Below, piece after piece: positions 9,412 to 11,029 of a DNA stretch of 64,000 nt (position 1 is the first letter of the stretch; every line of letters starts with the position of its first letter). The translations under genes and the position numbers were made by a program. The notes below the pieces were generated by a model, which ran no database searches, was not told where the DNA came from, and saw only the letters and a list, made by a program, of their open reading frames with translations. The DNA comes from Escherichia phage vB_Eco_F27: sequence record OP870146.1; one strand, given 5' to 3'.

Positions 9412-10038
9412 TTACTTACGAGTTTTTGCATATTGAGCAGCGTCAGCAGCCAAACGACCTGCCTGACGAAGTTTTTCTTTAATCGCATCGTGAAGTGGTT
9501 GAGTGTACTTCAAACCTTCGATAGTCAAATAAAGACGATAAAGGTCCGGGGTATCAAGGTTGTTGATATGTTGGCCATTACGAAGAATATTGAATTCACG
9601 AACGAGTGAAGATGTATCGGATTCAATATCACGAACAAGCGAAGATAGTTGTTTATATTTTTTTTCCAGACTAGAAGTATCAAACTTAAGAGCAGGAGCT
9701 TTAGGAGTTGCTTTTACTTCAGGCTTAGGCTCAGGTTTTGCTATTGCTTTAGGGGTCGCAGGTTTAGGAATGGAAGGAGTAGGTTTTACTTTAGGCGAAC
9801 CCGATTTAGCAGAAACACCACCACTAACAATATCTTTGAATGCTTTAGAAGCTCTGTAATATTCTTTTTGGCTGGAAGTGTCGATACCGTACATGGCTTG
9901 AACGTTTTTGAAAAACTCTGTACTAGTTTTTGTACCAGAAATAGCATCGTAAGCAGCTTGCCATTTCTCTTTTGTCATACGTACACCGGCTTCGGTGATT
10001 ACTTCCGTTTCGGCTAAAAATTCATTAAAAGTATACAT
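9412..10038 (-). CDS. internal head protein-like (N-terminus MYTFNEFLAE) with Pro/Lys-rich linker, 208 aa
   Basis: ORF track; ATG 10036-10038; late promoter TATAAATA about 36 nt upstream; PKVKPTPSIPKPATPKAIAKPEPKPEVKATPKAP segment. Confidence 0.5.
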   Translation of the reverse strand: MYTFNEFLAETEVITEAGVRMTKEKWQAAYDAISGTKTSTEFFKNVQAMYGIDTSSQKEYYRASKAFKDIVSGGVSAKSGSPKVKPTPSIPKPATPKAIAKPEPKPEVKATPKAPALKFDTSSLEKKYKQLSSLVRDIESDTSSLVREFNILRNGQHINNLDTPDLYRLYLTIEGLKYTQPLHDAIKEKLRQAGRLAADAAQYAKTRK

Positions 10039-10073: not shown

Positions 10074-10081
10074 TATTTATA
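10074..10081 (-). promoter_or_regulatory. late promoter TATAAATA (minus strand)
   Basis: Plus-strand tatttata; T4 late promoter consensus. Confidence 0.55.
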
Positions 10082-10082
10082 C

Positions 10083-10111
10083 AAAAAAGCCCCAACCTTT
10101 CGGAAGGGGCT
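10083..10111 (-). terminator. rho-independent terminator after the RNA gene cluster
   Basis: Minus-strand sense AGCCCCUUCCGAAAGGUUGGGGCU followed by UUUUUU. Confidence 0.65.
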
Positions 10112-10153: not shown

Positions 10154-10312
10154 TACGAAACGCCGGGATTCGAACCCGGTTATTGAGTAGTTGACGCTAC
10201 TCAATATTTTTAAAAGGCCATATCTCGACCATATCCGAACGTTCCGTCAAAAACGCTACTCGGCTTACGGCAAAGATATTTCCTCGAATCGATAATTCGG
10301 TGCGCCGTTTCT
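10154..10312 (-). ncRNA. tRNA-like small stable RNA (analogous to T4 rnaC/rnaD species); boundaries approximate
   Basis: 3' end has a canonical T-arm CCGGG-TTCGAAT-CCCGG followed by CGTTTCG, which can pair with GAAACG about 150 nt upstream; internal 8-bp hairpin TTGAGTAG/CTACTCAA; no ORF; sits in the tRNA cluster. Confidence 0.35.
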
Positions 10313-10414: not shown

Positions 10415-10759
10415 TTATTTTGGCATATCATCAATTTGCTCTCGACGCCGACGCCATAGATTAATCGCTTCATAAACACATTCTGCGTTTGGTATATGAC
10501 GGCAATAATATAATGATTCGCGTTTCTGGAATCGATGTTGCAATGGGATTTCGTTTAAAAGGTCTTTACGGTCAAAGTATTCAAAACTAGTTAACCCGGA
10601 ACGGTTTTTAATGAACTTCCAATGACCAAATTCATTTTGAACATAGATGTAATCTGCATGTTGGTATAACAAATTAATCAATCGGTCTGAAATAACTGTA
10701 TCATGTTCGTTAAAATAAAACGTTAAATCATGAACTACTAAGTAAACATTACCTTTCAT
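10415..10759 (-). CDS. hypothetical protein within the RNA gene cluster, 114 aa
   Basis: ORF track trimmed to ATG 10757-10759 with GAGGAAA SD, 19 nt downstream of tRNA-Arg; no GIY-YIG or HNH motif seen. Confidence 0.45.
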   Translation of the reverse strand: MKGNVYLVVHDLTFYFNEHDTVISDRLINLLYQHADYIYVQNEFGHWKFIKNRSGLTSFEYFDRKDLLNEIPLQHRFQKRESLYYCRHIPNAECVYEAINLWRRRREQIDDMPK

Positions 10760-10777: not shown

Positions 10778-10854
<77 letters not shown>

Positions 10855-10954: not shown

Positions 10955-11029
10955 TGGTGGCCCTGGCTGGTTTCGATCCAGCTACCTATCAGTTATGAGC
11001 TGACAGCTCTCCCATTGAGCTACAGGGCC
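10955..11029 (-). tRNA. tRNA with CAU anticodon (elongator Met, or Ile2 if lysidine-modified), 75 nt, CCA encoded
   Basis: Manual cloverleaf: acceptor GGCCCTG/CAGGGCC, D-arm GCTC-AATGGGA-GAGC, anticodon loop CTCATAA, T-arm GCTGG-ATCGAAA-CCAGC; ends resemble E. coli tRNA-Ile2. Confidence 0.85.

Follow-up and report, generated by a model that had tools for sequence, protein, structure and literature searches.

What is encoded on the minus strand between the transcription terminator near position 10083 and the coding sequence (CDS) at 10415-10759 of Escherichia phage vB_Eco_F27 (OP870146.1), where sequence resembling part of a transfer RNA (tRNA) lies next to a small tRNA cluster? The 64,000-nucleotide (nt) stretch of this record that was analysed is referred to as the window, and an earlier note on it had proposed that the segment 10154-10312 resembles the small stable RNAs rnaC and rnaD of phage T4. 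Species 1 RNA (rnaC) is a small stable tRNA-shaped RNA that has been known from T4 since the 1970s, and what it does has been a standing question for about fifty years. Judging from sequence comparison, the flagged segment is almost certainly the rnaC gene of a T4-like phage and an orthologue of T4 rnaC, and the best explanation of the locus as a whole is, very probably, an rnaC gene giving a cloverleaf-like RNA as a product of the tRNA cluster. rnaC is an already known gene, found here in a relative of T4, and the source phage of the window is a T4-like coliphage of the Mosigvirus type. The present analysis adds a fold backed by covariation, revised boundaries and the finding that the gene is widely left unannotated or mis-annotated, although structure proposals from 1975-1985 may overlap with the first of these.

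Identity, boundaries and conservation of rnaC

Alignment of the segment with T4 rnaC (NC_000866, 70908-71046) showed 137 of 139 nt to be identical, and neither of the two differences, an unpaired C that has become U and a G-C pair that has become G.U, affects the pairing. An nhmmer search matched rnaC at 10292-10154 (E = 1.2e-39), and the covariance model (CM) built for the family matched 10298-10146 with 171.8 bits, the highest score among all members and the sole copy in the window. When 50,697 phage records were searched by blastn, the segment was matched in 768 of them (approximately 770, T4-like), and the matched feature was labelled rnaC, "small stable RNA, species 1", in T4, T2L, RB3 and RB68. 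The identity as rnaC thus follows from the two mismatches to T4 in 139 nt, the approximately 770 matching phage records and a gene order as in T2L; full-length sequence homology, position in the cluster and conserved structure were all found, as in T4-type rnaC. The resemblance to the T4 RNAs proposed in the earlier note therefore proved to be orthology, and the alignment with T4 rnaC and rnaD that it had suggested as a check located orthologues of both in the window. It had also reported no open reading frame (ORF) between the terminator and the CDS at 10415-10759, and indeed the only ORFs overlapping this region were of 34-47 amino acids (aa) with TTG starts. In T4 infection, RNAC has been seen by northern blot and was classed together with RNAD as a late RNA (PMC9697503).

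The interval 10154-10312 did not hold up as a single RNA, since its positions 10299-10312 are the last 14 nt of rnaD and positions 10293-10298 are a 6-nt spacer. The corrected boundaries are given below; throughout, the window coordinate of RNA position p is 10293 - p.

10292-10154, minus strand: rnaC, species 1 RNA; 139 nt, with ends transferred from the T4 annotation and an nhmmer match over the same span
10293-10298, minus strand: spacer GAAUUA between rnaD and rnaC; an AAUUA-type spacer also follows tRNA-Trp in Karamvirus
10418-10299, minus strand: rnaD (species 2 RNA) orthologue; assigned by alignment to T4 rnaD, with the same layout in T2L; contains GAAACG at 10311-10306

The T4 annotation of rnaC runs from U(-1), one base ahead of the acceptor stem, to U-A (139 nt). 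That of T2L (AJ880101, 1812-1951) projects onto 10291-10152 of the window and runs from the first acceptor base, C+1, to U-A-C-A (140 nt), ends that match the acceptor stem with a tail of 4 nt. Of the two annotations, that of T2L agrees better with the predicted structure.

In 690 of the 768 matching records the rnaC segment was at least 95% identical, whereas a 401-nt region that included rnaD and the flanks reached this level in just 91 of 807 records, its top matches being members of Mosigvirus such as TH12 and moskry. The protein of the nearby 114-aa ORF is only approximately 70% identical to its T2-type copies, compared with approximately 98% identity of the adjacent rnaC at the DNA level. 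rnaC is therefore much more constrained than its surroundings.

Homologues were gathered by blastn (with the window, PG7 and pzk-kv8 as queries), by pattern scans of contigs from viruses and metagenomes and by nhmmer. This gave 47 rnaC homologues, 34 of them distinct, from at least 8 genera, the sources being Tequatrovirus, Mosigvirus, Karamvirus, Kanagawavirus, Gelderlandvirus, Moonvirus, Mosugukvirus, a Marfavirus-like group and the unclassified phage Ursula. Every one of them belongs to a tRNA cluster. The gap between tRNA-Trp and tRNA-Gly is exactly filled by the element in Karamvirus and Gelderlandvirus, and in PG7, Entb_43, VPA32 and EnC15 the tRNA-Trp gene ends 5-6 nt ahead of it. The metagenome pattern scan returned 43 loci, 13 of which were recognised as true homologues by nhmmer and the CM, and the remainder were rejected. 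The scan of viral contigs found only enterobacterial T4-like contigs; of the extra matches, the two that were inspected (L077 and L078) are GC-rich and unlike rnaC, and a CM search of these two contigs and of L080-L082 recognised nothing. Pattern matches outside enterobacterial T4-like contigs were all missed by nhmmer, and those tested with the CM were rejected by it. Likewise, a pattern scan of bacterial genomes gave 20 GC-rich chance matches, none of which was upheld by the CM, and hence no bacterial homologue.

In most of the approximately 770 records, rnaC is either unannotated or lies under short 'hypothetical protein' ORFs. In PG7 (L002 1554-1648) and in the records SonariX, vB_EcoM_G4500 and phage 55, part of a homologue has also been annotated as a 95-nt 'tRNA-Met' or as 'tRNA-Lys'. 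The alignment and the CM could be used to correct the annotation of rnaC in these records, for which there is no Rfam family at the gathering threshold.

Predicted fold and covariation

The RNA of approximately 140 nt is predicted, with high confidence in the secondary structure, to form a cloverleaf-like four-way junction made up of the following elements.

10291-10285, minus strand: 5' strand of the acceptor-like stem, CGAUUCG; RNA positions 2-8; pairs with 10162-10156
10284-10282, minus strand: 5' strand of P2, AGG; positions 9-11, at the D-stem position; pairs with CCU at 10217-10215
10279-10220, minus strand: long arm P3; positions 14-73, 60 nt, bent; four helical segments split by bulge or internal loops, with cap UUGACG at 10250-10245
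10250-10245, minus strand: loop L3, UUGACG; proposed kissing partner of loop L4 and its exact reverse complement
10219-10218, minus strand: G74 G75, between P3 and P2; in the place of G18 G19 of tRNA; candidate T-loop contact (tentative)
10217-10215, minus strand: 3' strand of P2, CCU; positions 76-78
10214-10207, minus strand: A-rich single-stranded linker UUUAAAAA; positions 79-86; A-run kept in nearly all homologues, unpaired in the consensus
10206-10181, minus strand: hairpin P4; positions 87-112; 10-bp stem with hexaloop CGUCAA (L4) at 10196-10191, at the anticodon-arm position
10179-10163, minus strand: T arm CCGGG-UUCGAAU-CCCGG; positions 114-130
10162-10156, minus strand: 3' strand of the acceptor-like stem, CGUUUCG; positions 131-137; abuts the T stem directly, as in tRNA
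10155-10151, minus strand: 3' tail U-A-C-A-A; discriminator-like U, then ACA at the place of the tRNA CCA

The minimum free energy of the 139-nt RNA was -52.4 kcal/mol compared to a mean of -34.5 for shuffled sequences (z = -4.95), and none of 200 shuffles equalled it. RNAalifold, run on a plain MAFFT alignment, found the same helices, with compensatory changes in 27 of 39 pairs. Counted on the MAFFT alignment, 90% of the cells were paired and 32 of 54 pairs had changes on both sides; none of 500 shuffles scored as high, and controls in which the partner strand had been slid were 38-47% paired. In the CM alignment of the 34 distinct homologues, 91.2% of the cells were paired and double changes were found in 35 of 56 pairs.

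The acceptor stem has 7 bp, including two conserved U.U mismatches in tandem, and is stacked on the T arm. An A-U pair (14 sequences) alternates with G-C (19 sequences) in this stem, such that CGAUUCG/CGUUUCG of the T4-type sequences becomes CGGUUCG/CGUUCCG elsewhere, and in PM2 (AGGUUCG/CGAAUCU) both of the otherwise universal U.U mismatches become U-A. In the 3-bp helix P2, an A-U pair is replaced by U-A in PM2, while the G-C pairs are invariant. For P3 and P2 together (helices 2 and 3 of the CM alignment), 21 of 26 pairs, the 3 P2 pairs included, had changes on both sides, and the P3 sequence has been almost wholly replaced, with pairing kept, in VPA32, PEi26, Melville, Ursula, the pzk-kv8 group and PM2. 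Furthermore, 9 of the 10 pairs of P4 had changed on both sides, with the loop sequence conserved. A single A separates P4 from the T arm, whose middle pair varies between G-C, U-A, A-U and U.G and whose loop, UUCRARY in most cases, is UGCAUGC in the Kanagawavirus clade (L003, L013, L020, L029, L063).

The T arm and the acceptor-like 3' strand CGTTTCG described in the earlier note are therefore both part of the fold, and the latter is conserved. Its internal 8-bp hairpin, TTGAGTAG/CTACTCAA at 10203-10196/10189-10182, is present as well, but belongs to a stem that really has 10 bp (10206-10181) and the loop CGTCAA. D and anticodon arms were said to be lacking; the four-way junction does have arms at these places, although their size is unlike that in tRNA.

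Two other ways of closing the element were weighed against this fold. The earlier note had paired the 3' strand with a GAAACG about 150 nt upstream, which would give an RNA of approximately 159 nt (10312-10154) closed by GAAACG (10311-10306) and CGUUUC (10162-10157). The 6-nt complementarity exists in the window as well as in T4, but GAAACG is part of rnaD, at the annotated 3' end of that gene, and in PG7, Entb_43, VPA32 and EnC15 the upstream sequence is instead the 3' end of tRNA-Trp, without GAAACG, and yet the CGUUUCG strand is conserved. The 3' strand covaries with CGRUUCG, including the AGGUUCG/CGAAUCU pair of PM2, and the conserved partner is CGAUUCG at 10291-10285. We regard the longer RNA as having a negligible chance of being correct, and GAAACG was rejected as the acceptor partner on these comparative data (absence where tRNA-Trp precedes, covariation elsewhere).

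Alternatively, ACGGAACG (10247-10240) could form an acceptor stem of 8 bp with CGUUUCGU (10162-10155), making the element a pseudo-tRNA of 93-95 nt. There is a weak match to tRNA-Sec at 10155-10247, 87% of the alignment cells can form these pairs, and annotators have called a tRNA at this place, as in the case of the 95-nt 'tRNA-Met' of PG7. However, the pairing did not covary (500 of 500 shuffles scored as high), the helix is interrupted at its centre in the 11 sequences whose arms diverge, ACGGAACG belongs instead to the covarying tip helix of P3 and its loop, and both ARAGORN and the Rfam tRNA model rejected such a tRNA. This acceptor, which can form in T4-type sequences and shows no covariation, was rejected, and we consider the pseudo-tRNA highly improbable. 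The pairing competes with the P3 tip helix and with the acceptor stem, and could represent a folding trap or a transient conformer of the precursor.

Within the four-way junction, the loops of P3 and P4 (L3 and L4, UUGACG/CGUCAA) matched exactly as reverse complements in every lineage although the stems that carry them have been nearly all replaced, with 99.5% of the cells paired. In 6 sequences of one clade (the pzk-kv8 group, Marfavirus-like) the loops are UUGGCG/CGCCAA, so that A46-U99 has become G-C, and in PM2 (GAGACG/CGUCA) the central four pairs are kept and two U-A pairs have been lost on both sides together. This pattern suggests that L3 of the long arm and L4 of the hairpin are likely to form a 6-bp kissing contact, which could be made either within one molecule or between two.

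A tRNA-like elbow between G74G75 and the T loop is possible from the pattern of base changes. G75 and C121 are invariant, and G74 is changed to C solely in the Kanagawavirus clade, which is also the sole clade with the T loop UGCAUGC. The T-loop and G74 changes of this clade may be either a linked change of the elbow or coincident changes at the junction.

Relation to tRNA, processing and function

The element is tRNA-like in part. Like canonical tRNA (RF00005), rnaC has a terminal stem of 7 bp that continues directly into a T stem of 5 bp, a loop (UUCGAAU) that agrees with the T-loop consensus, a four-way junction, tRNA genes as neighbours and a discriminator-like base followed by NCA. It differs in being approximately 140 nt long, with a 60-nt arm in place of the D loop, a hairpin with a 10-bp stem and 6-nt loop at the anticodon position, tandem U.U mismatches and an ACA tail; neither a D arm, a 7-nt anticodon loop nor a CCA end was found, and tRNA finders reject it. 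ARAGORN found only tRNA-Arg and tRNA-Met in the window, with no tRNA at rnaC and no transfer-messenger RNA (tmRNA). Similarly, in the Rfam scan that the earlier note had recommended (Rfam 15, gathering thresholds), only the two tRNAs passed in the whole window and no family accepted the element, and no match of rnaC to tRNA (RF00005) or tmRNA appeared at E values up to 10. The sole overlap under these relaxed settings was to tRNA-Sec at 10155-10247, with 18.5 bits (gathering score 47) and E = 1.4. Conversely, the rnaC CM gave true tRNAs 17-32 bits.

The base after the acceptor stem is U in all homologues, and the tail as a whole reads UACAA in most sequences, UCCAA in the pzk-kv8 group (L014, L017, L018, L019, L034, L066) and UCCAU in PM2 (L075). 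A single-stranded end of the tRNA type appears to be under selection here. Since the tail can be ACA or CCA, there is no strict need for CCA, which argues against aminoacylation as a conserved function.

Minihelices of an acceptor stem and T arm have been described as model substrates of RNase P (PMC11143913). Such a minihelix and the U-ACA tail are present in rnaC, the 5' end annotated in T2L coincides with acceptor position +1, and from these features we infer that rnaC is reasonably likely to be processed by the tRNA machinery. In this scheme, RNase P cleavage at the first acceptor nucleotide would leave the mature 5' end, and exonucleases would shorten the transcript from its 3' side toward the stem. 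Maturation of this type would explain how the RNA is excised between tRNA genes in other genera. Comparable arrangements exist elsewhere. tmRNA is a stable RNA processed by tRNA enzymes in which an acceptor/T-arm module is joined to a large non-tRNA insert; rnaC shares this architecture and would share the processing, but has no visible G3.U70 pair and no ARAGORN or Rfam match to tmRNA. YrlA (bacterial Y-RNA-like) and the tRNA-like 3' ends of plant viruses have a partial tRNA shape without decoding. Unlike in these RNAs, the two ends of rnaC form the acceptor stem itself, and no such family appeared in the Rfam scan at gathering thresholds or at E values up to 10. The phage RNase P substrates phi80 M3 RNA and the P1/P7 C4 antisense precursor, which are named in the references of PMC11143913, resemble what is proposed for rnaC in that a tRNA-like acceptor/T-type helix takes part in maturation, and differ in having no sequence relationship to it.

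The function of rnaC has been stated to be unknown (PMC3014915; PMC12685909). As a tentative guess, and a doubtful one, the RNA may act as a decoy or modulator, a stable mimic of tRNA that does not decode and that engages a host or phage protein which recognises tRNA. Possible targets of such a decoy would be a host defence nuclease directed against tRNA or an enzyme of tRNA maturation. In a more specific form, to which we give slightly less credence, rnaC would be a self-locked mimic with a true acceptor/T limb, an NCA/CCA tail and an anticodon-position loop sequestered by the 6-bp kiss. The contact between L3 and L4 would lock the RNA compactly, and mature rnaC would be unable to decode because no anticodon-like loop would be free. 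If true, a self-locked mimic would explain both the strong conservation in enterobacterial T4-like phages and host-dependent selection at rnaD. The fold makes the question of function testable, as the tandem-U.U acceptor stem, the covarying complementary loops and the ACA/CCA tail are now defined.

Several points weigh against the explanation as a whole. The rnaC of the present phage is known from its sequence, its expression and ends being transferred from T4 and T2L, and the ends annotated in those two phages differ by 1-2 nt on both sides. The evidence for the kissing contact is loop complementarity and one clade-level compensatory event; the intramolecular geometry looks tight, and the contact could join two molecules. 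The contact between G74G75 and the T loop draws on one clade in which several nearby bases changed together, and the different T loop of the Kanagawavirus clade means that a strict tRNA elbow is not universal. The tail in the present phage is ACA and not CCA. The decoy role itself is an inference, and T4 phages from which the tRNA region has been deleted can grow on laboratory strains.

Other roles were considered along with that of a mimic. One is a trans-acting base-pairing small RNA, in which the loops or the A-rich linker would pair with an mRNA of the host or the phage, and excision and stability would be the only tasks of the tRNA-like part. The loop sequences are conserved while the stems vary, RNAC and RNAD have been termed small regulatory RNAs (PMC9697503), and a T4-like phage that was adapting to a semi-permissive host acquired a convergent single-nucleotide polymorphism in rnaD (PMC12685909). 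However, the mutual complementarity and covariation of the two loops account for their conservation, so that no external target need be assumed; unpaired sequence is conserved in runs of just 6-8 nt, and no target is known (PMC3014915). We consider this role unlikely. It is very unlikely that rnaC behaves like tmRNA or the tRNA-like ends of plant viruses, acquiring CCA or an amino acid and joining machinery related to translation. The 7-bp acceptor, the T arm, the discriminator-like U and the CCA encoded in the pzk-kv8 group and PM2 would suit such an RNA, but ACA is encoded in the T4-type sequences, the window included, there is no recognisable synthetase identity set, neither ARAGORN (tmRNA) nor Rfam (tmRNA-like families) matched, and the anticodon-position loop appears to be taken by the kiss. 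Finally, location in a tRNA cluster, tRNA-like arms, the absence of a known function and dispensability in the laboratory might point to a decaying tRNA pseudogene or a passive operon spacer without a function of its own. Against this, rnaC is far better conserved than its flanks, compensatory change is seen across at least 8 genera, unpaired motifs are conserved and the stable RNA accumulates in T4 (PMC9697503), leaving this alternative scarcely credible.

The tRNA cluster around rnaC

The minus-strand order in the window is tRNA-Met, tRNA-Arg, a small ORF, rnaD, rnaC and a terminator, and the order tRNA-Arg, trna.2 ORF, rnaD, rnaC is common to the window and the T2L tRNA cluster record. As in T4 and T2L, rnaC lies on the same strand as the cluster, at its 3' end, after rnaD and before the same terminator; the present phage differs in being Mosigvirus-like and, like T2L but unlike T4, in having an ORF between tRNA-Arg and rnaD. 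The remaining features of the cluster are as follows.

10955-11029, minus strand: tRNA-Met(CAU); found by ARAGORN and Rfam
10778-10854, minus strand: tRNA-Arg(UCU); found by ARAGORN and Rfam
10153-10083, minus strand: 3' trailer and intrinsic terminator; hairpin GCCCCUUCC-GAAA-GGUUGGGGC at 10110-10089 and U-run at 10088-10083, conserved with T4

In T4, the tRNAs and the species I and II RNAs all derive from a transcript of approximately 1.75 kb that spans the whole tRNA cluster and stops after the species I gene (PMC2330249). By analogy, rnaC of the present phage is probably transcribed within a long tRNA-cluster precursor that ends at the terminator at 10110-10083. This terminator, placed at 10083-10111 in the earlier note, was visible in the fold as a hairpin and U-run, and a consensus terminator scan did not list it because the stem carries two U.U mismatches. 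At the places of these mismatches in GCCCCUUCC/GGUUGGGGC, T4 has G.U and A-U.

The 5' end of rnaD overlaps the TAA stop codon of the CDS at 10415-10759, as it does in T2L. The ends of rnaD are conserved and its middle differs strongly among T4, T2L and the present phage; its predicted fold is weaker than that of rnaC (z = -2.75). The CDS at 10415-10759 (minus strand, 114 aa), located between tRNA-Arg and rnaD, belongs to phrog_3355, of unknown function, and is homologous to trna.2 of T2L and absent from the corresponding position in T4. The neighbouring ORFs to which protein tools were applied all fell into families of unknown function.

Immediately after the rnaC terminator, the T4 late-promoter consensus TATAAATA is found at 10074-10081 (minus strand), 36 nt ahead of the ATG of a 208-aa ORF at 9412-10038 (phrog_2280). 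In the window as a whole this motif is more frequent than expected, with 19 matches compared to 8.

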